From assembly GCA_913009415.1 (NCBI GenBank), contig CAJVYM010000001.1:1-63878 (forward strand): a stretch of DNA of 63,878 nucleotides, read 5' to 3'. Positions 35,017 to 47,231 of the stretch are shown here, piece by piece; positions within the stretch are counted from its first letter, which is position 1, and each line of letters opens with the position of its first letter. This DNA is from an uncultured bacterium. Its GTDB lineage: Bacteria; Bipolaricaulota; Bipolaricaulia; UBA7950; UBA9294. A program made the translations under genes and the position numbers. Below the pieces are notes generated by a model. The model was not told the DNA's origin. It searched no databases and saw only the letters and a list, made by a program, of their open reading frames with translations.

Positions 35017-36963
35017 ATGGACAAGAAACGAGTGCTGGTGTGCAGTGCGTGGCCGTATGCCTCGGGGGTTCCACACCTCGGGAACCTCGTCTCGTCGCTC
35101 CTTTCAGGCGACGTGTTCACCCGCTACTACCGCCTGCGTGGGCACGATGTCCTCTACGTCTCCGGAAGCGATGCGCACGGTACGCGTATCGAGTACGAGG
35201 CTAAGCAGCTCGGGATCACCCCGGCGCAGCTCGCCGAGAGTAACCACAAGAAGATACGCGTGGTGATCGATGGCTTCGGGATCGAGTTCGATAATTACAC
35301 GACGACAGAGTCCCCGGTGCATAAGGATTTCGTCCAAAAGATTTACCTGGATATGGAGAAGAACGGGTACATCACCACCAAGGAGGAGGATCGCGCGTAC
35401 TGTCGCAATTGTAAGGTCTTTCTTGCCGATCGGTTCATCTCCGGCACCTGTCCTCGCTGCGGTGCTCTCGGGGCGCTGGGAAATCAGTGCGACAGTTGCG
35501 GTGCGATGCTCGAGCCGGAGGAATTGATCGACCCTATCTGTAGTTTTTGCGGGAAGGGGGACATTGAGTTTCGTTCTACGAAGCATTGGTACCTTGATCT
35601 GGCCAAGCTATCACCGCAGTTGCAGGAGTACGTGAAGTCGCGTAACTTCCAAGGCAATGTCCAACAGTTTACGCAGCAGATGATCACGGATGGGTTGAAG
35701 CCGCGGGCGATGACGCGCGACATCGACTGGGGGATCCCCGCTCCGTTTGAGGGAGCTGAAGGGAAGGTAATCTACGTGTGGGGCGAGGCGGCGCTCGGGT
35801 ATGTATCGGCCGCGATGGAACACTTCGCTGGGAATGATGACTGGAAGGAGTTCTGGTTCGGCGATGATGTGCATCAGATCTACGCCATTGGCAAGGACAA
35901 CATCCCCTTCCACACGCTGATCTTCCCCGGGCAGCTCATCGCCTCTGGCCGCGGGTACCACCTGCCAGATCAGATCGCCGCTACCGAGTACCTGAACTGG
36001 ATCGGCGGTGACAGCTTCTCCAAGAGCCGCGGAGTGGGCCTATACTGCGATGACGCGCTTGCGGTGATGGACGCCGAGCTGTGGCGCTTCTATCTGCTGT
36101 ACAACCGCCCCGAGGGGCGCGATGTGAACTTCTCCTGGGAGGAGCTGGCGAAGGCGGTCAACGGCGTCTTCATCTCCAACGTGGCGAACCTGATTAACCG
36201 CGTGTTGTCGTTTGTGCAGGATCGCTATGATCGCATCGTTCCGGATGTCGACGTCGATAGCGAGGTGGCGAGCAGAATCGGCGAGGCGATTCATTCATAC
36301 GTGAAGGCTATAGCGCGAGCTAGCCTGAGCCACGCTCTGCGTGAAGCCTGTTCGCTTGCGGTCTACGGAAACGAGTACTTCCAACGGAAGGCCCCCTGGG
36401 CAACGAAGGATGCTGTTGCAGTAGGAAGTGCGTTCCATCTAGTGAAGGCGATGGCGATCATGCTTTCTCCGTTCGTCCCCCGCTATGCGACGAAGGTGCT
36501 TGAGATAATGGGCGTGGGGGAGGCGAGCTGGGAGGAAATCGATGATGTCCATAAAGGTGCGGCGATCGGATCGTCGCGCGTCCTCCTGGAGCGGATCGAT
36601 GTGGAGAGGATAAAGGCCGAAGTTGAGAGCCTTGCCCAGGAGCGGGTATCATTCGATGACTTCTCTCGCTTGGATATGCAGGTGGGGAAGATCGTCTCTG
36701 TGGAGGAGATCGCTGGGGCTGACCGCCTGTACCGGTTACAGATCGACGTTGGCAAGCGCACGCTCACCAGTGTGGCGGGGATCAGGGCGCGCTACTCAAC
36801 CGAGGATCTTATCGGTCGCCAGGTGGTCATTGTCGTGAACCTGGAGCCGACGGTGATCCGCGGCGTGAAGTCGGAAGCGATGCTCCTTGCTGCGGGGAAA
36901 GGAAAGGGGATCTCCCTCCTTGCCCCGGATCGTGATGTCCCACCGGGAAGCGCGATTGGCTAA
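35017..36963 (+). CDS. metG: Methionine--tRNA ligase with a C-terminal tRNA-binding domain
   Basis: PYASGVPHLGNL (HIGH-type), a zinc knuckle (CPRCG...CDSCG), FSKSRG (KMSKS-type) and a C-terminal Trbp111-like domain. Confidence 0.95.
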   Translation: MDKKRVLVCSAWPYASGVPHLGNLVSSLLSGDVFTRYYRLRGHDVLYVSGSDAHGTRIEYEAKQLGITPAQLAESNHKKIRVVIDGFGIEFDNYTTTESPVHKDFVQKIYLDMEKNGYITTKEEDRAYCRNCKVFLADRFISGTCPRCGALGALGNQCDSCGAMLEPEELIDPICSFCGKGDIEFRSTKHWYLDLAKLSPQLQEYVKSRNFQGNVQQFTQQMITDGLKPRAMTRDIDWGIPAPFEGAEGKVIYVWGEAALGYVSAAMEHFAGNDDWKEFWFGDDVHQIYAIGKDNIPFHTLIFPGQLIASGRGYHLPDQIAATEYLNWIGGDSFSKSRGVGLYCDDALAVMDAELWRFYLLYNRPEGRDVNFSWEELAKAVNGVFISNVANLINRVLSFVQDRYDRIVPDVDVDSEVASRIGEAIHSYVKAIARASLSHALREACSLAVYGNEYFQRKAPWATKDAVAVGSAFHLVKAMAIMLSPFVPRYATKVLEIMGVGEASWEEIDDVHKGAAIGSSRVLLERIDVERIKAEVESLAQERVSFDDFSRLDMQVGKIVSVEEIAGADRLYRLQIDVGKRTLTSVAGIRARYSTEDLIGRQVVIVVNLEPTVIRGVKSEAMLLAAGKGKGISLLAPDRDVPPGSAIG

Positions 36964-37020
36964 GGCGTTGAAAAGGGCGGTAGTCCCCGCTAAAATCAGT
37001 ACGACTGAGGTGTGAATTCT

Positions 37021-37335
37021 ATGTATGCAGTAATCGAAACGGGTGGTAAGCAGTATTTACTGGAGAATGGCGATCTGTTCGATCACGAGCTGATCGACGG
37101 CGTTGCGGCCGGCGAGACGGTCACCTTTGACAAGGTCCTTCTTGTTGTCGATGATGGAGAAGTTCAAGTTGGAACTCCGTATCTGGACGGTGTGAAGCTG
37201 GTCGGCGAAGTGCACGAGCAGGGACGTGGCGACAAGGTTATCGTCTACAAGTACAAGAGCAAGAAGGGGTACCGCCGAAAACAGGGGCACCGCCAATCGT
37301 ATATGAAGACGAAGATTACGGCGATCGAAGCGTAG
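37021..37335 (+). CDS. rplU: 50S ribosomal protein L21
   Basis: MYAVIETGGKQY... Confidence 0.95.
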   Translation: MYAVIETGGKQYLLENGDLFDHELIDGVAAGETVTFDKVLLVVDDGEVQVGTPYLDGVKLVGEVHEQGRGDKVIVYKYKSKKGYRRKQGHRQSYMKTKITAIEA

Positions 37336-37346
37336 AGGAGCAATAC

Positions 37347-37670
37347 GTGGGAGAGATCATCATTTCGCGCGATGAGCACAATCGCATTCTCGATCTGACC
37401 GGGCAGGGGATCGATGAGGACACTCCCGCTGGCGCTGCGGCGCTGCGGTTCCTGCAGGCGACCGTCTCTTCGATGACCGACTATCTGCATCTCGCACCGG
37501 ACTACTCGCTTGGAAAGCGGGTGCAGTTGTCGATCGATCGCAGTGCTCCTCACGTTAACCGTGAGATCGATGCGATAATGGAGACGCTTGTCATTGGATT
37601 GAGACAGCTTGCGGTAGAGTATGCACAGGATCTTGTCGTGCACGAAGCGACAGTAGGGATACAGGTTTAG
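37347..37670 (+). CDS. Prp (DUF464)-like protein between L21 and L27, apparently lacking the catalytic dyad
   Basis: It has the position and size of the ribosomal-processing cysteine protease. Where I expect GHA...(D)IVCAAVS, the sequence reads GQGIDEDTPAGAAALRF. Confidence 0.55.
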   Translation: MGEIIISRDEHNRILDLTGQGIDEDTPAGAAALRFLQATVSSMTDYLHLAPDYSLGKRVQLSIDRSAPHVNREIDAIMETLVIGLRQLAVEYAQDLVVHEATVGIQV

Positions 37671-37682
37671 CAAGGAGTAAGA

Positions 37683-37955
37683 ATGGCACATAAGACGAGC
37701 ACTGGCTCGACGAACAACCTACACGATAGTCCAGGCCAGCGCCGGGGAGTTAAGCGCTTTGGTGGAGAATGGGTGAACCCAGGAACGATCATCGTCCGGC
37801 AGTGCGGGACGAAGTTTGCGGTGGGGAAGAACGTCGGTTTGGGACGTGATTACACCATTTATGCCACCGTTCCCGGGTACGTGCAGTTCACCGGAAAGAA
37901 GAAGAAATACGTGAACGTCCTTCCTGCCCAGCAGGGTGCTGCCCAGGAGGGTTAG
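37683..37955 (+). CDS. rpmA: 50S ribosomal protein L27
   Basis: [12 protein letters not shown]...GVKRFGGE. There is no N-terminal propeptide. Confidence 0.95.
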
Positions 37956-37999
37956 TCCTCTCGTGTTCACCTCTCTTGTGAGTCTCAGAGCGTCTATTC

Positions 38000-39274
38000 A
38001 TGTTTATTGATGAGGCAGTAGTCCGTGTCCAGGGAGGGCGCGGCGGCAACGGCGTTATTCGATTCATATCCAACAAGCACAACTGGAAGGGAGGCCCGGA
38101 CGGTGGAAGCGGCGGAGACGGCGGGGATGTGGTCATTCGCAGCTCGCTGAGCATTTCTACGCTCTACCAGTTCCGCAACCGACCGAAGTTCGTCGGAGGG
38201 CAGGGCGGAGATGGCGGGAGCAACAACAAGCAGGGTGCTCGCGGAAAGATCGCGGTGATCCTCGTCCCGATTGGTGCGATCGTGCGCAACGCGCGTACCG
38301 GAGACGTAATAGCCGACCTAGTGAACCCGGACGAAGAGGTCGTTGTCGCCCAAGGTGGTGAAGGCGGACGCGGAAACAACAGTTTCGTCACCTCGTCCAG
38401 GCAGGCCCCCCGCATCTGTGAGCGAGGCTTGGCGGGAGAGATACGCACGCTGCGCATGGAGTTGCGGCTCATCGCTGATGTTGGGATCATCGGATACCCG
38501 AACGTCGGGAAGTCAAGCTTGATCTCCCGTATTTCCGGGGTTCAGGCGAAAGTTGCCGACTATCCGTTTACGACAATCACCCCCAATCTCGGTGTCGTCG
38601 ACGTCGACGGCCTGCACCAGTTTGTCGCCGTGGACATCCCTGGATTGATCGAGGGCGCACACGAGGGCAAGGGATTGGGAGACAGGTTCCTGCGGCATGT
38701 CAAGCGCACGCGTGTGTTGATTCACATGATCGATCTGGCTAAGCTGGAGGGGCGAGATCCGCTTAAGGATTATCGTCGCATTAACGAAGAGCTGCGCTCG
38801 TCAAGCGAGGAATTGGCAAGCAAGCCACAGATTGTCGTGGGAAACAAGGTTGATCTGTTGGATGATGATACGGTTCAGCAGGAGAAGAAAAGGTTCACTG
38901 CGATTGGGATAGATATTATTCCAATCTCTGTAGCTACAGGATCTGGATTGCGCGGCGTGGTAAACCTGGCATACAACAGGTTACAGTCAATCGGCGCCGC
39001 TGTCCTCGATAGAAAGAGTGCACTGAAACGCCGCGTCTATCGCTTCCACGACGAGGAAGGGTTTCGCGTTGAGCAGGAAGGTGAGGCGTTCGTCGTTAGG
39101 GGACAGACCGTGGAGCGTCTGGTGGCAAAGCTTGTCCTTGACAGCCATGACGCGCAGGAGTACCTGAGTGATCGACTGGATAGGATGGGAGTGTTTCAGG
39201 AACTGGGGCGGCACGGATTCGCGCCGGGAGACCCGCTGCGCATTGGAGAGGTGGAACTTGAACTTGATCGGTAG
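38000..39274 (+). CDS. obg: GTPase Obg
   Basis: MFIDEAVVRVQGGRGGNG, GYPNVGKSSLI and a C-terminal OCT-like domain. Confidence 0.95.
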   Translation: MFIDEAVVRVQGGRGGNGVIRFISNKHNWKGGPDGGSGGDGGDVVIRSSLSISTLYQFRNRPKFVGGQGGDGGSNNKQGARGKIAVILVPIGAIVRNARTGDVIADLVNPDEEVVVAQGGEGGRGNNSFVTSSRQAPRICERGLAGEIRTLRMELRLIADVGIIGYPNVGKSSLISRISGVQAKVADYPFTTITPNLGVVDVDGLHQFVAVDIPGLIEGAHEGKGLGDRFLRHVKRTRVLIHMIDLAKLEGRDPLKDYRRINEELRSSSEELASKPQIVVGNKVDLLDDDTVQQEKKRFTAIGIDIIPISVATGSGLRGVVNLAYNRLQSIGAAVLDRKSALKRRVYRFHDEEGFRVEQEGEAFVVRGQTVERLVAKLVLDSHDAQEYLSDRLDRMGVFQELGRHGFAPGDPLRIGEVELELDR

Positions 39275-39875
39275 GATCGGCCTGTTTGGGGGGACGTTCA
39301 ACCCGCTACATAGCGCGCACCTGCTCGTGGCAAAGTCTGCCTACGAGCAGTTTGGGCTATCGAAAGTGGTCTTCATCCCCAGCGGGATTCCACCGCACAA
39401 GGAGATCATGACCAACGTGACCAAGGAGGACCGCTATGCGATGGTGAAGAGGGCGATCGCTCCGTTTCCTTACTTCTCCGTATCGCGGATCGAGATCGAT
39501 CGAGATGGCCTGTCCTACACGATCGATACAATTCGGGCGCTGCAGGGCGCTTATCCGCAGGGGCTGTGTTTCATCGTTGGAGCCGATCTTCTGTCGCAGA
39601 TTGAAACGTGGAAGGAGCCCGACAAGCTTCTTGAGAGCGTCCCTTTTGTTATCGCACCACGGAACGGGATCTCCAAGGACATTTTTGCGGCTCCGCCGTT
39701 TGATAAGGCGAGGCTTTCCTTTCTAGAGATGGACGAGGTCGATCTCTCCTCAACGTGGGTACGCGATCAGATCAGAAGAGGAGAGGGAATTCCAGATTGT
39801 GTGCCGGAGCCCGTGGCGAGCTATATCGAAGAGCACGGCTTGTATCAACACCGAGAACCGGTGCCAGCGAAGTAA
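39258..39875 (+). CDS. nadD: Nicotinate-nucleotide adenylyltransferase
   Basis: IGLFGGTFNPLHSAHL. A TTG start is proposed 7 nt after GGAGAGG; the upstream part of the listed ORF overlaps obg. Confidence 0.85.
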   Translation: MNLIGRIGLFGGTFNPLHSAHLLVAKSAYEQFGLSKVVFIPSGIPPHKEIMTNVTKEDRYAMVKRAIAPFPYFSVSRIEIDRDGLSYTIDTIRALQGAYPQGLCFIVGADLLSQIETWKEPDKLLESVPFVIAPRNGISKDIFAAPPFDKARLSFLEMDEVDLSSTWVRDQIRRGEGIPDCVPEPVASYIEEHGLYQHREPVPAK

Positions 39876-39887
39876 TAGGAGGTAGGT

Positions 39888-40400
39888 ATCAAAAGAAGTT
39901 TACGCATTAACGAGCGGATTCGTGAGCCGAAAGTGTTAGTGATTGATGACAAGGGTGATAACCTGGGAATAATGGCTACATCCGACGCAGTGGCGCTTGC
40001 AAAGGAGCGTGGACTCGATCTGGTAGAAGTTGCATCGCAGTCTGAGCCGCGAGTGTGTAAAATCGTCGACTACGGGAAGTATCACTACCAGCAGGCGAAG
40101 CGCGACCGCAAGCAGAAGCATCGTTCACGTCTGAAGGAAATGAAGTTCACGATCAAGATCGGTGAGCATGACTTTCAGACCAAGATGAAGCGTGTACGCA
40201 AGTTTCTGACGCAAGGGGACATGGTACGCGTGTCGATCTTCTTCCGTGGGCGGGAGATCGTGCATGCCTCGCGCGGACACGATCTCTTAAAGCGAGTGGC
40301 AGACGAGCTGAGCGATATCGCCCGTGTTGACGAACAGCCGAAGGCGAGAGGAAAGATACTGCAAATGCTACTGGTTCCAAACCAGAACCAGAAAACCTGA
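39888..40400 (+). CDS. infC: Translation initiation factor IF-3, with a probable AUC start
   Basis: The conserved N-terminus IKRSLRINERIREPKVLVIDD begins at ATC 39888, 5 nt after AGGAGG. An in-frame TAG lies at 39876. Confidence 0.8.
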   Translation: MKRSLRINERIREPKVLVIDDKGDNLGIMATSDAVALAKERGLDLVEVASQSEPRVCKIVDYGKYHYQQAKRDRKQKHRSRLKEMKFTIKIGEHDFQTKMKRVRKFLTQGDMVRVSIFFRGREIVHASRGHDLLKRVADELSDIARVDEQPKARGKILQMLLVPNQNQKT

Positions 40401-40413
40401 TAAGGAGGAGAAG

Positions 40414-40608
40414 ATGCCTAAGCAAAAGACACATCGAGCGGCGAGCAAGCGCTTCCGACGCTCGAAGAGTGGGAAGCTCTTCCATCACATGTCTAACTAT
40501 TTTCACAAGAATGTGAAGAAGCGTTCTAAGTCGGTTCGCCAGGCCCGCCAGGATCAAGCGATCTCCGGTGGACAAGCAAAGAATATCAAACGAATGATTG
40601 GTAGTTAA
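40414..40608 (+). CDS. rpmI: 50S ribosomal protein L35
   Basis: MPKQKTHRAASKRF... Confidence 0.9.
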   Translation: MPKQKTHRAASKRFRRSKSGKLFHHMSNYFHKNVKKRSKSVRQARQDQAISGGQAKNIKRMIGS

Positions 40609-40623
40609 TTCAGGAGGAAGAAG

Positions 40624-40986
40624 ATGCCACGAGCACGTGGGGGAAACAAGAGACTACAGAGCCGCAAGAAGATCATGCGGCTGGCCAAGGGGTTTAAAGG
40701 TAAACGTGGGACATCGCACCGCATCGCAAAGCAAGCGGTGATGAAGGCGCTGCGCAACAGCTATATCGACCGACGTCGTCGCAAGCGCGACTTCCGAAGG
40801 TTATGGATCGTGCGGATCGGCGCTGCGGCAAAGCAGAACGGTCTGTCATACTCGGCGTTCATCGGTGGAATGCAGAAGCGCGGGATCGGTCTGAATCGAA
40901 AGATGCTCTCCGAAATAGCGGTGCACGATGCTGAAACGTTCTCCGCGTTGGCGACTATGGCCAAGGAGGAAGCGGTCAAGGGGTAG
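40624..40986 (+). CDS. rplT: 50S ribosomal protein L20
   Basis: MPRARGGNKRLQSRKKIMRLAKGFKG... Confidence 0.95.
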   Translation: MPRARGGNKRLQSRKKIMRLAKGFKGKRGTSHRIAKQAVMKALRNSYIDRRRRKRDFRRLWIVRIGAAAKQNGLSYSAFIGGMQKRGIGLNRKMLSEIAVHDAETFSALATMAKEEAVKG

Positions 40987-40988
40987 GG

Positions 40989-41792
40989 ATGGATTCACAA
41001 GAGATCGCCCTTCGCCTGCGTGAGTTTTGGGAGGCCGAGGGGTGTCCGGCCATCCCCACCTATGGATCGATCCCCGCCGGCGGACTGACTTTCGATGTCT
41101 TTTTCGGAATTCTTGCCCCTGATCCGTGGTGTGCCTGCCAGGTGGTGAGTATCGTAGATCCATCCGTGGCGCTCTACGACGATGATCCACTTCGGCCGAT
41201 CATCGATTCTTGCCTGCAGGTGACGCGGCAAGATCCATCGGGCGACCTGCGGAAGAGGTTCATCGAGAGCCTGCGGGTGCTTGAGATAGATCCGCGGGAC
41301 AGGGATGTGCGCTTTGTCGCCCACGGCTATGATCTCTCCCATCTGGCAGCACGGGCTGCGGGCTGGCGTGTGTTGATCGACGGGATTGAGGTTGGTAGCC
41401 TGTTCTATGTGCGGCAGTTGGGGGGGATCGATCTTAAATTCGCTCCGATTGTCGTTGAGTATTTTCTTAGGCGCATGGAGTTTGCTGTGGGTATTGAAGG
41501 TGAAAAAATGCCGACAGAACGTGGGCGGCAGATTGCATCTTACGTTCTGGAGCACGCTAATCCCGAACGGATTGGCTCGTTTCTGTCCCTGCACGCTGAT
41601 GAATGTGAACAAGCACTCGGAGGTGGCCTCTACTATCAGGCGTACGATCATGTTCTCGCCTCTGTGTACCTATTGTCGGTCCTTACTGCGCGGGATGGGC
41701 TAAGCGCGAAGGAATACGCCACCCGTACCGCGCGCATAGCCGACCTTGCCCGAGGCTGCGCGAGGGCCTACGTGGAGGCGACTGATGCCTGA
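40989..41792 (+). CDS. GlyQ-like protein (glycine--tRNA ligase alpha-subunit homologue with divergent catalytic motifs)
   Basis: It appears collinear with GlyQ (EFWEAEGC, APDPW, DVRFV, GWRV, QLGG). The motifs I recall as invariant (QPSRRPTDGRYGENPNR, GWEVW, TQFTYFQQ, YGLER) are replaced. Confidence 0.65.
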   Translation: MDSQEIALRLREFWEAEGCPAIPTYGSIPAGGLTFDVFFGILAPDPWCACQVVSIVDPSVALYDDDPLRPIIDSCLQVTRQDPSGDLRKRFIESLRVLEIDPRDRDVRFVAHGYDLSHLAARAAGWRVLIDGIEVGSLFYVRQLGGIDLKFAPIVVEYFLRRMEFAVGIEGEKMPTERGRQIASYVLEHANPERIGSFLSLHADECEQALGGGLYYQAYDHVLASVYLLSVLTARDGLSAKEYATRTARIADLARGCARAYVEATDA

Positions 41793-43689
41793 TCTCCTGC
41801 TTGAAGTCGGGACTGGCGAGATGCCGATCGATGTGCTCTCAGCGCTTGCTTCGGACCTTTCTCGGCGCGCAGGTGAAGCTATTTCGGAGAATGGGCTGCT
41901 GGGAGACGGGATCCGCGTCCTGTACACGCTTCGCCGACTGGTGTTCATCATGCGAAATGTTACTGGCCAACGTTTGGGAGGCGAAGAGGTGATCAACACC
42001 ATTTCTCGCGTCCTAGGGGGAATTATGGCGGCACTGACAAGTGAAAGAGCGATACGCAGGGATGCCTCGCCCGCTGACTTCATCCTGCCGATCCGCTACC
42101 TCGTCTGCCTGTATGGTGAACAAGTCATACCTGTTCGCGCCCGAAACGTGACTGCAGATCGCGTGACGCGCGGCCACTGGCGCACCCATCGGGAAGAGAG
42201 CATTGCGCTGCCCTCACCGGCCGGTTACGAACAGGCGCTTGCTGGGGGTGGGGTTGTCGTTGACCCGGAGAGGCGCAAGCAGATGGTGAGCAATGCTGTC
42301 ACCGCCGCTGCGCATGAGGAGAACGTATCCGCGCAGATCGACGATGATCTACTGGTGAAGATCGCTGATGCCGTTGAGTACCCACAACCGGTGATCGGCA
42401 GAGTGAATCTTCCCTCCGATCTCCGGGTAACGTTTGCGAACGCTGCTCTACGCGAGGCGGGCTTCGTTCCTCTCGATGCAGGGCAGGGAAGTGACATTCG
42501 ATTTGTCGGATTTGCCGATGGGGCGATGGAGCAGGACGTTGTGCGTGTGGGCTACGAGCGCGTGGCGCGAAGTGCACTGCGCGGTTGCAAGCTCCTCTTC
42601 TCGCGTGATCGTAAGGCGTCATTAGCAGACCATGTACGCAGTCTGCGTGGGATCGACGGCGAACTGGGCTTGGGATCGCTGTGGGAGAAGACCGAGCGAT
42701 TGCGCACGCTTGCGGGGCAGATCGCACAGGCGATCGATGCCTCGCCAGGAACGGTCGATCGCGCAGCGTTTCTTTCTCAAGCGGACCGGGCAACGTGGAT
42801 CGTGCGTGCGTTCCCATCATTGCATGGGATCGCTGGAGCGACCTACGCCGTGCTCGATGGTGAAGAATCGAGCGTCTGTATCGCCCTCGAAGAGGGAGCA
42901 CTTTCAATCTCAAACGGGATCCCGGGGGCATCGGAAGGGCTTGCTATCGCCATTGCGCGAAGCTACGACGATCTCTGTAGCCGCCTCTTGACGGGAAGCG
43001 ATATGCACGATCCACAGGTGATAGGCGTGGTGGACGATCTGATTGCTCTGATGGTCGGAGGGAAAGTCGATCTTGACCTTCTGTCATTGCTCGCTCCGGT
43101 GAGTGAGCAGTTCAACATTTTCGCGCCCGTGATGAAGACGGAAGAACTGGGAAAGAGGCTTCGTACCTGTCTCGAAGAGCGTCTTGTTGAATACATTGAG
43201 ACGAGTGAAAAGATCACATCGCCAATCGCCTCCGCGATCCCACAGGAAGTGAGAGCAAACCCCTACCGTAGCAGCGCTTGCGCACGGGCATTGCACGAGG
43301 CAAGTGGCGGAGAGGATTTTTCCTTACTGCTCGGCTCGTTTGAGAGGCTGCGGGCGCTCTTGCCCGCAGGAAGCACACGCGCCTTCGACCCCGCCCTCTT
43401 TGAAGGCGAGAGTGAGAGGGCCTTATGGCGCGCATACCTGAAGGCGGAGGGGAAGCTCGAAGCCTTCCTTACGAAACTTGACTACGCACAGGCGATAGAT
43501 CAGCTCATCACATTGGGCAGTGCGATCGATCGCTACACGAAAGATATAGATACACATGCAGGACCTAAAAGCATGGGGAACAACCGCCTGGGGCTTATCG
43601 CCAGCGTTTTGGACCAGTTCGCGCACGTCTGCGATCTTGCGGCGCTGCTGGCAGCACACGGATATGCCCTGAGCGACGAGAAAAGATGA
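41785..43689 (+). CDS. GlyS-like protein (glycine--tRNA ligase beta-subunit homologue, divergent)
   Basis: MPDLLLEVGTGEMP...RRLVF...VIPVRARNVTADRVTRGH parallels GlyS. The start overlaps the end of the GlyQ-like gene by 8 nt. Confidence 0.65.
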   Translation: MPDLLLEVGTGEMPIDVLSALASDLSRRAGEAISENGLLGDGIRVLYTLRRLVFIMRNVTGQRLGGEEVINTISRVLGGIMAALTSERAIRRDASPADFILPIRYLVCLYGEQVIPVRARNVTADRVTRGHWRTHREESIALPSPAGYEQALAGGGVVVDPERRKQMVSNAVTAAAHEENVSAQIDDDLLVKIADAVEYPQPVIGRVNLPSDLRVTFANAALREAGFVPLDAGQGSDIRFVGFADGAMEQDVVRVGYERVARSALRGCKLLFSRDRKASLADHVRSLRGIDGELGLGSLWEKTERLRTLAGQIAQAIDASPGTVDRAAFLSQADRATWIVRAFPSLHGIAGATYAVLDGEESSVCIALEEGALSISNGIPGASEGLAIAIARSYDDLCSRLLTGSDMHDPQVIGVVDDLIALMVGGKVDLDLLSLLAPVSEQFNIFAPVMKTEELGKRLRTCLEERLVEYIETSEKITSPIASAIPQEVRANPYRSSACARALHEASGGEDFSLLLGSFERLRALLPAGSTRAFDPALFEGESERALWRAYLKAEGKLEAFLTKLDYAQAIDQLITLGSAIDRYTKDIDTHAGPKSMGNNRLGLIASVLDQFAHVCDLAALLAAHGYALSDEKR

Positions 43690-44069
43690 AATATAGGCTT
43701 ACAAGCGCGCGCATCGAAGTCTGTGGAATCGAAGTCATAGGTTTCCACGGTTACTACGATGCAGAACGGACGAAAGGGAATCGCTTCTCGATCGATCTGC
43801 GGGCGGAGGGGGATTTTCATTCCTCTCTTACAAGCGATCGATTGGAGGAATCCATCGACTATTCACAGATGGTGCAAGTCGTTTTCGATGTCAATCGGGC
43901 AAAAGACAATCTTCTCATCGAGTCCTTCGCCGATCGGATCGCAAACGCCATGCTTGAGAGGTTCCCGCGCATGCAAAAGATTGCTGTACGGGTGGAGAAA
44001 CTTCACCCGTACGGCCTGGGAACAGTGAGATGTGCAGCGATAGAGCTGGAGAAAGAGAGGGAGAACTAG
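43686..44069 (+). CDS. folB: Dihydroneopterin aldolase
   Basis: IEVIGFHGYYDAERTKGNRFSIDL...DYSQ. Confidence 0.85.
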   Translation: MKYRLTSARIEVCGIEVIGFHGYYDAERTKGNRFSIDLRAEGDFHSSLTSDRLEESIDYSQMVQVVFDVNRAKDNLLIESFADRIANAMLERFPRMQKIAVRVEKLHPYGLGTVRCAAIELEKEREN

Positions 44070-44563
44070 ACGACCTCGTCTATCTGGGACTGGGGTCTAA
44101 CATGGGTGAGAGGCGCGAGCAGATAGATGATGCTCTCGGGTTTCTCGTTAAGAGCGGCGTGCGCGTTGTGCGGCGCTCCCCTTTCTATGAGACGGAGCCG
44201 GTCGGGTACTCCGATCAGCCGTGGTACCTAAACGCGGTTGTTGCAATGAGGACCGATCTTTCTCCCACGGAGCTCCTCTCTCTGTGCAAGGAGGCCGAGC
44301 GTCGAGGAAATAGAGTACACTCTTTCCGCTTCGGCCCACGCACGATCGATGTTGACATCTTGCTCTACAAGGGGCAGATCCACCGTGACAACACCCTTCA
44401 GATTCCCCACCCCCGCATGCACGAGCGCCGATTCGTCCTTGTACCGCTTGTCGAGATTGCCCCCGGGATTACAGTCCCGGGAGAACAGACGCAATACGCC
44501 GACATACTGGCGGGGCTCGATGAGAAAAAGAAGGTGGCAAAATCAAAGGAACACGCATTCTGA
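44030..44563 (+). CDS. folK: 2-amino-4-hydroxy-6-hydroxymethyldihydropteridine diphosphokinase
   Basis: VYLGLGSNMGER, FYETEPVG, GPRTIDVDILLY and PHPRMHERRFVLVPL. The start is uncertain. Confidence 0.85.
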   Translation: MCSDRAGEREGELDDLVYLGLGSNMGERREQIDDALGFLVKSGVRVVRRSPFYETEPVGYSDQPWYLNAVVAMRTDLSPTELLSLCKEAERRGNRVHSFRFGPRTIDVDILLYKGQIHRDNTLQIPHPRMHERRFVLVPLVEIAPGITVPGEQTQYADILAGLDEKKKVAKSKEHAF

Positions 44564-45786
44564 TAACGGTCGATACGACCGAGAAACACGTCAAACGAAC
44601 GCGCGTAGCGATCGTCGAAGACGACAAGTTGATGGAGATCTACTACGCGCATCCGACGCAAGAGAACATTGTCGGCAACATCTACAAAGGGAAGGTGGAG
44701 GACGTCCTCCCCGGGCTTGGCTCGGCGTTCGTCAACGTGGGGGAGAAGAAGAGCCTCTTCTTGTCGAAGGGCGAGATCAACGACCAGATCATGATCGAAA
44801 AGGGGTTCAAGCCGTGGCATGGCGCTGCTCCGATCAACAAGCTCCTGCGTGCTGGCCAGACGCTCACCTTGCAGGTGAGGCGCGGGGGAATCGGGTCAAA
44901 GAACCCGCAGGGAACGACTAAGATCAGTCTCCCGGGGCGGTTCTGGGTCTTCCTTCCCACCGAGGATCGGTTGGGAGTCTCCCGCCGTGTGGATAGCGTG
45001 CGCACGCAGCGCCGTCTGCGCCGCATCGCGCGCGAGCTGAAGAAAGAGGGGCAGGGGATGATCGCGCGCACGGCGGCGCAAGCGGCGAGCAAGGAGGAAC
45101 TGACCCGCGACTACGAGCTCCTCGCGCAGACCTGGGAGAGCATCGAGTCTGCAGCGAAGACTTCGTCAGCACCGCAGCTCCTGTACAAGGGAATGGGCCT
45201 CGTTCAGACGATCCTCCGCGACCGTCTCCTTTCCGACGTGGCTGAGGTGATCGTCGATTCCGAGTTCTTCTACGAGAAGATACAGTATTTCCTAGAATAC
45301 ATGCACATGGAGAATTACAAAGAGCAGATTACCCTCTACACGGGTAAGGATCATCTCTTCGATCACTATCATCTGGAGGAGCAGATCCAAGAGACGCAGT
45401 CGCGGCGTGTCGGGCTTGCCGGCGGTGGGTCGATCGTGATCGACGAGACAGAGGCATTGATCGCCATTGACGTGAACACCGGCGGGGATGTGCAGCACCG
45501 CAATCAGCGCTCGGCGATCCTCAACACGAACCTGGAGGCGGCGTACGAGATCGCGCGGCAGCTACGGCTGCGGCAGATGAGCGGGATCGTTGTGGTCGAC
45601 TTCGTGGACATGGACGACGCCAAGGACGAGCAGACGCTAATTGATAAGGTGAAAGAGGAGCTGAAGAAAGACAGGATTTCGGCGGATTTCGTTGACCTGA
45701 CAGGACTGGGCCTGGTGGAGATAACGCGAAAACGTGCCGGGGAGAGCCTCGCTGACATGCTGGAGAGCGCGCAGTTTGAGGCTTGA
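44557..45786 (+). CDS. rng: Ribonuclease G/E family endoribonuclease
   Basis: S1 region GNIYKGKVEDVLPGLGSAFVNVG, and AIDVNTG. The conserved N-terminus (ITVDTTEKHVKRTRVAIVED) lies upstream of the first ATG/TTG, so a non-canonical start (ATT/CTG/ATA at 44557-44565) is inferred. Confidence 0.75.
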   Translation: MLITVDTTEKHVKRTRVAIVEDDKLMEIYYAHPTQENIVGNIYKGKVEDVLPGLGSAFVNVGEKKSLFLSKGEINDQIMIEKGFKPWHGAAPINKLLRAGQTLTLQVRRGGIGSKNPQGTTKISLPGRFWVFLPTEDRLGVSRRVDSVRTQRRLRRIARELKKEGQGMIARTAAQAASKEELTRDYELLAQTWESIESAAKTSSAPQLLYKGMGLVQTILRDRLLSDVAEVIVDSEFFYEKIQYFLEYMHMENYKEQITLYTGKDHLFDHYHLEEQIQETQSRRVGLAGGGSIVIDETEALIAIDVNTGGDVQHRNQRSAILNTNLEAAYEIARQLRLRQMSGIVVVDFVDMDDAKDEQTLIDKVKEELKKDRISADFVDLTGLGLVEITRKRAGESLADMLESAQFEA

Positions 45787-45827
45787 TCGGGTGAGATGGA
45801 GACGCTAGAATAGGGAGGCTTTGAGTT

Positions 45828-45900
45828 GGGCGAATAGCTCAGTTGGGAGAGCGTTCGGGTCACATCCGAAAGGTCGCAGGTTCGAGCCCTGCTTCGCCCA
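45828..45900 (+). tRNA. tRNA-Val (anticodon CAC)
   Basis: A manual cloverleaf folds as follows. Acceptor GGGCGAA/TTCGCCC. D arm GCTC-AGTTGGGA-GAGC. Anticodon arm TTCGG-GTCACAT-CCGAA. T arm GCAGG-TTCGAGC-CCTGC. Discriminator A. CCA is not encoded. Confidence 0.9.
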
Positions 45901-45946
45901 TTTCTTTTCCTTGCAGCGGCGCACTCCACCATTTCCGATCGATACT

Positions 45947-46957
45947 ATGCGTCTTGTAGGAGGCACGGAAGTGCGGGCACTGGTGACTGGAGGAACGGGC
46001 TTCATCGGTTCTGCTATCGTGCGCGAGCTGTTGCACGCTGGTTACGACGTGCGCGTCCTTGTCCGCCACGGGTCTGACACGAGAAACCTCGACGGGCTCG
46101 ATATTGAGCGCGTCACCGGAGACATCACCGCTCCCGCATCGCTTAGGCGTGCGATGCGCGGCTGCACGCACGTCTTTCATGCCGCCGCCCTCTACTCGTT
46201 TTGGGTCACAGTGCCGGGACTCATCGAGCGAGTGAACGTAGATGGGACGAGAAACGTGCTACAGGCGGGGCTGGAAGCGGGGATAGAGCGTGTGGTCTAC
46301 ACGAGCTCGGTCGCCGCGCTCGCTGTCCCGAGCAGGGGAGAGCCGGTCGATGAATCGACACCGGTCGACCCGAGCGCGATCATCGGCGCGTACAAGAAGA
46401 GCAAATACGCTGCGCAGCAGGTGGCGCTCGAATATGCGGCAAAGGGCCTGCCCGTGGTGATCGTCAATCCGTCGTTTCCCGTGGGGCCGCGCGACATCAA
46501 GCCGACCCCGACCGGCCAGACGATCCTCGACTTCATAAACCACCGCCTCCCCGCCTACGTCGATACCGGGATCAACGTTGTCGATGTGGAAGACGTCGCG
46601 CGCGGGCATCTGCTGGCAGCGGAGAAGGGGCGTGTTGGGGAGCGCTACATCCTCGGGGGAACGAACATGCCGATGAAGGGATTCCTCGGCATTCTGGAGA
46701 AGATAACCGGTATCCCTGCGCCGCGCGTGCGACTGCCATACGCTCCGCTCCTTGCTTTGTCGTACCTTAACGCCGCCTGGTGCCGGGTGATGAAGACCAC
46801 TCCGCGAATGACGCCGGACACGATCCGCATGTCGCGCCACTACATGTACTACAATCCGACGAAAGCAATCAAGGAACTCGGCATGCCGCGGACCGCACCG
46901 GAGGTGGCGCTGAAGAAAGCCGTCGACTGGTTCATCGCGCACGGGAAAGACCGATAA
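45947..46957 (+). CDS. NAD-dependent epimerase/dehydratase family protein
   Basis: ALVTGGTGFIGSAIV...YKKSK. The start is ATG 45947, or GTG 45971 (8 nt after AGGAGG). The listed ORF start at 45821 overlaps the tRNA. Confidence 0.85.
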   Translation: MRLVGGTEVRALVTGGTGFIGSAIVRELLHAGYDVRVLVRHGSDTRNLDGLDIERVTGDITAPASLRRAMRGCTHVFHAAALYSFWVTVPGLIERVNVDGTRNVLQAGLEAGIERVVYTSSVAALAVPSRGEPVDESTPVDPSAIIGAYKKSKYAAQQVALEYAAKGLPVVIVNPSFPVGPRDIKPTPTGQTILDFINHRLPAYVDTGINVVDVEDVARGHLLAAEKGRVGERYILGGTNMPMKGFLGILEKITGIPAPRVRLPYAPLLALSYLNAAWCRVMKTTPRMTPDTIRMSRHYMYYNPTKAIKELGMPRTAPEVALKKAVDWFIAHGKDR

Positions 46958-47231
46958 AGTGAGCGATTCACCACGAAGGGGGCAAACAACGAGGAATCCA
47001 ATCAGGCCGTCGATATCACGTGCATTGCGAGAAGAACCACCATATTCATCTATCCTGTCACTTTCATTCTTTGTGGCGAGTCTTGCTAGTCTTGGCATCC
47101 TTTGCGCGCAAGAAGATCTTCGCCCCCCGCTTTCCGCGCTCTGCGTTCTTCTTATCGGCCACCGTTTGCTTGATTTATGCCGCCGATTTACCTACTGTTT
47201 TGCGCTACGTTCAAGCTGTTAGGGAGGAATC

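Follow-up and report, generated by a model that had tools for sequence, protein, structure and literature searches.

Eroded glyQ-like and glyS-like genes beside an intact dimeric glycyl-tRNA synthetase in Bipolaricaulota: a putative relic of a displaced enzyme

Bacteria use two unrelated glycyl-tRNA synthetases (GlyRS), and the patchy distribution of the two types is a long-standing puzzle. The window analysed here, a stretch of 63,878 nt (contig CAJVYM010000001.1) from an uncultured bacterium of the Bipolaricaulota (GTDB lineage Bipolaricaulia; UBA7950; UBA9294; assembly GCA_913009415.1), contains two overlapping genes that resemble glyQ and glyS, the genes for the alpha and beta subunits of the bacterial (alpha-beta)2 GlyRS. 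Does this pair still charge tRNA and, if it does not, why are both reading frames still there? The original prediction, made from the letters of the window, was that the pair may be a non-catalytic or repurposed paralogue. From the sequences we conclude that the pair is almost certainly non-catalytic, since it lacks residues required in Escherichia coli and the genome encodes a second, canonical GlyRS. The glyQ-like gene (positions 40989..41792, + strand, 267 aa, PF02091 match) and the glyS-like gene (41785..43689, + strand, 634 aa, PF02092 match) are eroded orthologues of the genes for the two subunits. The genome itself is a metagenome-assembled genome (MAG) of 2.32 Mb in 180 contigs, 91% complete with an estimated contamination of 3%, and all genomes compared with it were MAGs.

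The GlyQ-like protein is a true homologue of bacterial GlyQ and collinear with it, as had been predicted by eye, with an end-to-end match to PF02091 (128 bits, cut-off 27, profile positions 2-276 of 278 covered). The shared blocks EFWEAEGC, APDPW, DVRFV, GWRV and QLGG were all present. Scores with the more specific models were low: 123 bits with the NCBIfam GlyQ equivalog NF006827 (cut-off 369) and 112 bits with TIGR00388 (cut-off 361), while canonical GlyQ proteins of the same bacterial class reached 389–450 bits. The protein was aligned with phmmer to solved GlyQ structures and with MAFFT to 10 canonical relatives of the same class and E. coli GlyQ. Both alignments returned the four block replacements listed in the original prediction: PSRRPTDGRYGENPxR is replaced by VSIVDPSVALYDDDPLR (the remnant of the motif-2 loop, 41145..41195, + strand), DWESPTLAAWGxGWxVW by GYDLSHLAARAAGWRVL, TQFTYFQQ by GSLFYVRQ, and LTYGLER by VEYFLRR (the remnant of motif 3, 41454..41474, + strand). 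Motifs 2 and 3, which a rigorous alignment could have shown to be conserved, were not conserved.

Residues of E. coli GlyQ that are important by structure and mutagenesis have been described by Ju et al. (PMC8464048). When eleven such functional residues were mapped by alignment, seven were lost from the GlyQ-like protein and four were kept; the 10 canonical relatives keep 10 or 11 of them. One of the five residues of the glycine pocket was retained (Q84), and T39, Q82, W121 and E162 were replaced by G, C, Y and V (V155), respectively. The motif-2 arginine R64 was replaced by D (D57). Two Mg2+ ligands were replaced as well (D67 by V, V60; E134 by R), and the third, E141, was kept, as were the gamma-phosphate arginines R76 (R69) and R169. 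The S8-S9 hairpin just downstream of motif 3 was 13 residues shorter. With the motif-2 arginine, Mg2+ ligands and four of the five glycine-pocket residues lost, the GlyQ-like protein would no longer activate glycine.

The downstream gene had been described as a shortened, divergent glyS, and its product is indeed 634 aa long, compared with 686–700 aa in canonical relatives (PF02092, 232 bits; TIGR00211, 288 bits, just below the cut-off of 300). The shortening results from the precise deletion of the 59-residue B2 domain: residues 66-124 of E. coli GlyS are cut to 3, leaving a scar at 41962..41988 (+ strand) that is common to all eight full-length GlyS-like sequences of the genus. The other domains (B1, B3, HD and ABD) are present. 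The arginine contacting the ATP gamma-phosphate, R326, is replaced by A, and W150R and R159L affect two residues that are needed for charging in E. coli. Four of the seven HD-cavity residues were changed, and the substitutions K394Q, Y434A, D456R and K457S (E. coli numbering) were found. The HD cavity is still conserved in part (E. coli K364, R367 and D459), as is the DRAAFL...YA block. With residue roles taken from the structure of E. coli GlyRS with tRNA (PMC9908026), loop H18-19 of the HD domain, responsible in E. coli for reading discriminator U73, was seen to be eroded by a 4-residue deletion and R482G (42997..43038, + strand). Likewise, the loop binding the anticodon (C35) reads YTKDIDTHAG for canonical YFDDVLVMAK (43534..43563, + strand), so that FFDxVxVM of F652-M658 has become YTKDIDTH, and N588 is replaced by A. 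No precomputed Pfam match to DALR (PF05746) exists for any degenerate GlyS; one is recorded for most canonical relatives. All three tRNA-Gly genes of the genome carry the bacterial U73 discriminator. With the beta subunit deprived of its ATP-contacting arginine, B2 domain, U73 loop and anticodon loop, the complex would be expected neither to charge nor to recognise tRNA-Gly specifically.

How, then, does the organism charge tRNA-Gly? The original prediction had proposed searching the genome for a second GlyRS, and the search returned a full-length dimeric (alpha2) GlyRS on contig C75 (634 bits with the NF003211 equivalog, cut-off 312), closest to the solved structures of bacterial alpha2 GlyRS; the window pair is thus not the sole GlyRS. 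A whole-assembly search of this 91%-complete MAG found no second GlyQ. In the tree of the dimeric enzyme the terminal branches were short (0.03-0.08). Since the MAG is fragmented and carries some estimated contamination, and the dimeric gene lies on a separate 10-kb contig, that contig could in principle stem from a contaminant, leaving the divergent glyQS as the sole GlyRS. We regard this as very improbable. The same combination occurs in eight of 10 independently assembled genomes of the genus, and the GC content of the contig (0.55) is similar to that of the window contig (0.57). The dimeric GlyRS subclades (G000, G003, G006, G009, G010) and (G002, G007) match both the species tree and the degenerate-GlyQ subclades, with G015, a genome of the sister genus, as sister to the former in the dimeric GlyRS tree. 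Sister genera also use the same dimeric enzyme as their sole GlyRS.

The presence of this canonical, slowly evolving enzyme also speaks against a further reading, in which the active site is highly divergent but the pair still works as an aminoacyl-tRNA synthetase, be it for glycine or for some other substrate. The class II fold and motif 1 are kept and, in the window's own genome, so are E. coli R76, Q84, E141 and the motif-3 arginine; the open reading frames (ORFs) are intact and under purifying selection. Against activity, the motif-2 arginine position holds D, H or G in every member of the degenerate clade, and in E. coli the single exchange R64A is enough to reduce glycine activation about 985-fold and to abolish charging (PMC8464048). 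The motif-3 arginine (R169) is Pro in the subclade of G002 and G007, the former active-site positions, including those of the pocket, vary among clade members, R326 and the U73 and anticodon loops of the beta subunit are eroded, and two congeners either lack the pair or retain it in gutted form. Continued activity is therefore unlikely in our judgement. In the glyQ-like gene of G010 an in-frame tandem repeat encoding (DRGC)n was observed; it falls within what was once the catalytic core, close to where the contig ends (L024, G010:C123:4700-8189).

The position of the pair shows where it came from. Canonical and degenerate genomes share the order obg-nadD-infC-rpmI-rplT-glyQ-glyS-folB-folK-rng, and the slot between rplT and folB holds canonical glyQS in 10 relatives. 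Since the pair occupies this ancestral slot, it is a vertically inherited, positional orthologue of glyQS; the view of it as a paralogue did not hold. The remark that it sits where pheST commonly follows infC-rpmI-rplT proved to describe a coincidence, since glyQS natively follows rplT in this class and PheS is encoded elsewhere in all 24 relatives searched. A disguised phenylalanyl-tRNA synthetase was considered and rejected on the same grounds, the 24 relatives including all 10 congeners. In the window's own 91%-complete MAG, PheS (PF01409) had no match, most likely owing to an assembly gap.

In the 41 genomes of the class, canonical GlyQ almost never occurred together with dimeric GlyRS. 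In the window's genus, degenerate GlyQ was found in eight of 10 other genomes (49-144 bits; the G010 copy is cut at a contig end) and dimeric GlyRS in eight of 10, the two genomes without it being incomplete assemblies (74% and 88%). The relatives share the substitutions, as the original prediction had proposed checking: the losses of R64, T39, Q82 and E162, of beta R326 and of B2 are common to both subclades of the genus, and catalysis was therefore lost before the genus radiated. In a species tree built from RplT, FolK and Rng, G015, which has canonical glyQS as well as a dimeric GlyRS, was placed as sister to the genus with the degenerate pair. Its glyQS appears fully canonical, with 423 bits and 10 of the 11 functional residues as in E. 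coli (L029/L072); residue E134 is Q, as in most canonical relatives. Genomes G012, G013 and G014 formed a separate clade that has the dimeric GlyRS only, with rplT followed directly by folB.

Two genomes of the genus have gone further. In G004, which is nested in the genus, the pair is gone and an unrelated 800-nt spacer separates rplT from folB; blastn and blastx found no glyQS remnants in it beyond the first 43 nt, at the rplT/glyQ boundary. The spacer looks like a replacement insertion. By eye it is AT-richer, and it contains a 164-aa cysteine-rich ORF without similarity to glyQS (L065, G004:C121:41500-47000, minus strand). In G006 a single ORF of 379 aa begins at the former glyQ start and ends at the former glyS stop. 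It arose through three deletions (net 1069, 102 and 444 nt), all of which preserve or restore the frame, and the fused form corresponds to database cluster P0056 with 15 member sequences. The omega (dN/dS) of this remnant branch depended on the outgroup (0.46 vs 1.06) with dS near saturation, and only its 1.6-fold higher dN was usable. The pair is thus dispensable in at least two congeners. Taken together, the relatives show glyQS only, both enzymes intact (in the sister genus), a dimeric GlyRS with dead glyQS, an in-frame collapsed remnant, and a clean deletion.

If the pair is dead as an enzyme, is it also dead as a gene? Both ORFs are intact, with no stops, in eight species. Omega was estimated by the Nei-Gojobori method with bootstrap limits for five within-genus pairs, and lay between 0.24 and 0.36 for both genes; the upper 95% limit was at most 0.51 and no bootstrap replicate reached 1. 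In a neutral simulation at half the observed pairwise dS, about 6 stops in the glyQ-like and about 13 in the glyS-like gene were expected per lineage, and none were seen. A pseudogene was therefore rejected. By comparison, omega was 0.03-0.12 for obg, nadD and rng and 0.14-0.33 for folB, and relative to Obg the GlyQ of this genus evolves several-fold faster than in canonical lineages. Along the pair omega was flat, at 0.22-0.34 across the alpha catalytic core, the alpha C-terminal helices and the beta B1, B3, HD and ABD domains. The AlphaFold2 model of the alpha subunit (predicted local distance difference test, pLDDT, 82; predicted template modelling score, pTM, 0.81) matched six GlyQ structures in Foldseek with TM scores of 0.81-0.84, and that of the beta subunit (pLDDT 88.9, pTM 0.79) matched GlyS structures with TM scores of 0.63-0.78. 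At the level of single positions, 56 canonically invariant or near-invariant residues of the alpha subunit were lost and 24 kept, with five newly invariant in the clade; for the beta subunit, 53 were lost, 46 kept and four newly invariant, three of the four being cysteines.

The genes around the pair suggest one reason why both frames may have stayed open. In the window, rplU, a small ORF, rpmA, obg, nadD, infC, rpmI, rplT, the glyQ-like and glyS-like genes, folB, folK and an RNase G/E-type gene form a co-directional, tightly packed string. The upstream gene rplT (ribosomal protein L20, 85-98% identical within the genus; 40624..40986, + strand) ends with a TAG stop 2 nt before the glyQ-like ATG (TAG-GG-ATG). 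The glyQ-like and glyS-like genes overlap by 8 nt, and the latter overlaps folB (dihydroneopterin aldolase; 43686..44069, + strand) by 4 nt (ATGA); folK (HPPK; 44030..44563, + strand) follows in the same conserved operon. The glyS-like gene most likely starts at ATG 41785 and not at TTG 41746, judging by the GGAGG 7 nt upstream, the 8-nt overlap and the alignment with the canonical MPDLLxEIGTEE N-terminus. A scan for promoters and terminators inside the string gave only chance-level signals, and an Rfam search over 36000-47000 found no leader or T-box. Its single match was a tRNA gene (65 bits, 45828-45900) directly 3' of the RNase G/E-type gene that ends the operon. As read from the sequence, the rplT-glyQ-glyS-folB-folK junctions support translational coupling.

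On balance we favour, with some reserve, the reading that the pair is a displaced, non-catalytic relic, kept by operon coupling and fold-level selection and slowly being lost. The ancestral glyQS would have become redundant when the dimeric GlyRS took over glycylation. In a coupled string, a nonsense or frameshift mutation in either gene would uncouple or polarise folB, folK and rng and so harm their expression, and selection against such mutations may have kept the frames open. The collapse in G006, which kept the frame, is consistent with such a constraint. In addition, a protein that is presumably still produced from a ribosomal-protein operon may be under selection not to misfold, and the cost of misfolding could account for the uniform fold-level constraint. 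A dispensable non-catalytic role may also contribute.

Several observations weigh against this reading. At about 0.3, omega does not exceed the values of FolB and FolK, which are genuine enzymes of the same operon. Coupling alone would give an omega near 1, so that some protein-level selection must act, which the relic reading explains only loosely. Bacteria usually delete useless genes quickly, and both genes persist throughout a genus whose two subclades are separated by a dS close to saturation. The three new invariant cysteines of the GlyS-like protein hint at a gained feature. The window's genome is, moreover, a MAG of 91% completeness.

It is a real possibility, though the less probable one, that the pair was neofunctionalised. 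On this view the (alpha-beta)2 scaffold has lost glycylation, and selection on a new, non-catalytic function, for instance that of a scaffold, regulator or sensor, keeps omega at about 0.3. Purifying selection comparable to that on FolB and FolK has continued long after the catalytic residues were lost, the subunits have been retained together in eight species and through a deep genus, and both folds are confidently predicted. C268, C365 and C499 (42586..42588, 42877-42879 and 43279-43281, the first on the + strand) are invariant in 13 of 13 database and eight of eight genome sequences of degenerate GlyS; canonical GlyS lacks them and carries S/A, A/V and R instead. Together with the conserved part of the HD cavity and the DRAAFL...YA block, they could mark such a role. 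However, the newly conserved sites are few compared with the 56 and 53 canonical ones lost, and the cysteines lie in three different domains (B3, HD and ABD, respectively). Since the active-site positions differ among members, the old pocket would hold no new conserved chemistry, and with a flat omega no domain stands out as functional. The loss of the pair in G004 and its gutting in G006 further imply that any role is dispensable. Repurposing, the second option of the original prediction, was thus not demonstrated: functional surfaces are eroded, few new sites are conserved, and the pair was lost twice within the genus. That it nevertheless represents the first GlyQS-derived pseudo-synthetase, with catalysis and tRNA-Gly recognition gone and a new role, perhaps involving the cysteines or the conserved half of the HD-domain cavity, throughout the history of the genus, we consider possible but less likely than not.

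In a profile search covering 1.84 billion representatives, the degenerate clade of the window proved to be a small group of about four clusters at 50% identity, and the sequences retrieved included other eroded GlyQ proteins. In P0113 the motif-2 loop is wholly deleted (…CVEAAYRYRVLLKP…) and the motif-3 arginine is replaced by G in a full-length ORF of 263 aa. A GlyQ fragment resembling P0113 was observed in G019, a genome of another genus with dimeric GlyRS (L038, G019:C41:1-3300). This second dead GlyQ lineage is apparently independent of the window's genus, and from these sequences the erosion of GlyQ appears to recur across lineages. Partly eroded GlyQ proteins were observed in P0080, which reads PSRSP and NLEW, and in P0083, which reads YGLAR and carries a low-complexity insert. 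P0050 is a divergent B2-less GlyS that is 36% identical to that of the window. In G029, a genome of another family, GlyS lacks B2 and carries R326Q, R482H and N588H (L034, G029:C29:11500-20500), and GlyQ, with E162A, has a borderline score of 389 bits. The assembly is 93% complete, and no match to a dimeric GlyRS was seen in it. The alternatives are that activity does not require B2 or that decay in this genome has not yet gone as far. P0017, a "GlyQ + GGDEF" protein examined as a candidate repurposed GlyQ, was rejected, as none of the 11 canonical residues is missing and the fusion seems to stem from the gene call.

Compared with the bacterial (alpha-beta)2 GlyRS, the pair has full-length homology in both subunits, the predicted folds, the gene order and the genomic slot of related genera. 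It differs in that the catalytic residues, B2 and the tRNA determinants are lost, its scores fall below the equivalog cut-offs, and it is not the sole GlyRS of its genome. Because cut-offs, catalytic residues, domain architecture and tRNA determinants all fail to match, the pair, judged by its sequence, should not be filed as a working GlyRS. Annotation calls for caution here: P0008 of the degenerate clade is named 'glycine--tRNA ligase subunit alpha' in public records. A literature search for degenerate GlyQS, or for GlyRS in Bipolaricaulota, found no published description.

A survey of 542 proteomes found both GlyRS types together in one, that of Haloactinopolyspora alba, called this state "extremely rare", and noted that no model explains the patchy distribution of the types (bioRxiv 10.1101/2023.05.29.542759). 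The doubly intact state of G015 is of this kind. The window's genus resembles H. alba in combining a bacterial-type and an archaeal/dimeric-type GlyRS in one genome, but its bacterial-type enzyme is eroded, this state is fixed genus-wide, and earlier and later stages are found in relatives. By preserving successive stages of replacement, this family of Bipolaricaulota allows direct study of how, and how fast, an essential translation enzyme is displaced.

Among aminoacyl-tRNA synthetase-like proteins without charging activity, HisZ is a HisRS-like regulatory subunit of ATP phosphoribosyltransferase. The pseudoenzyme trait of such proteins, catalytic residues lost and purifying selection continued, was found in the window pair, which as judged from its sequence likewise seems to keep a class II synthetase fold under selection without aminoacylation. 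HisZ, however, is a paralogue that arose by duplication and has both a defined partner and a defined function, whereas the pair is the original orthologue, and some congeners are losing it. A further parallel is the displacement of glyQS, in situ or non-orthologous, by an alpha2 GlyRS, the process by which a bacterial lineage exchanges one type of GlyRS for the other. In the window's genus the incoming dimeric gene lies at a different locus. Normally only the end states of such a displacement are seen, whereas here the displaced genes survive as intact, dead ORFs, which suggests that a synthetase can long outlast its displacement, still folded and translated although inactive.

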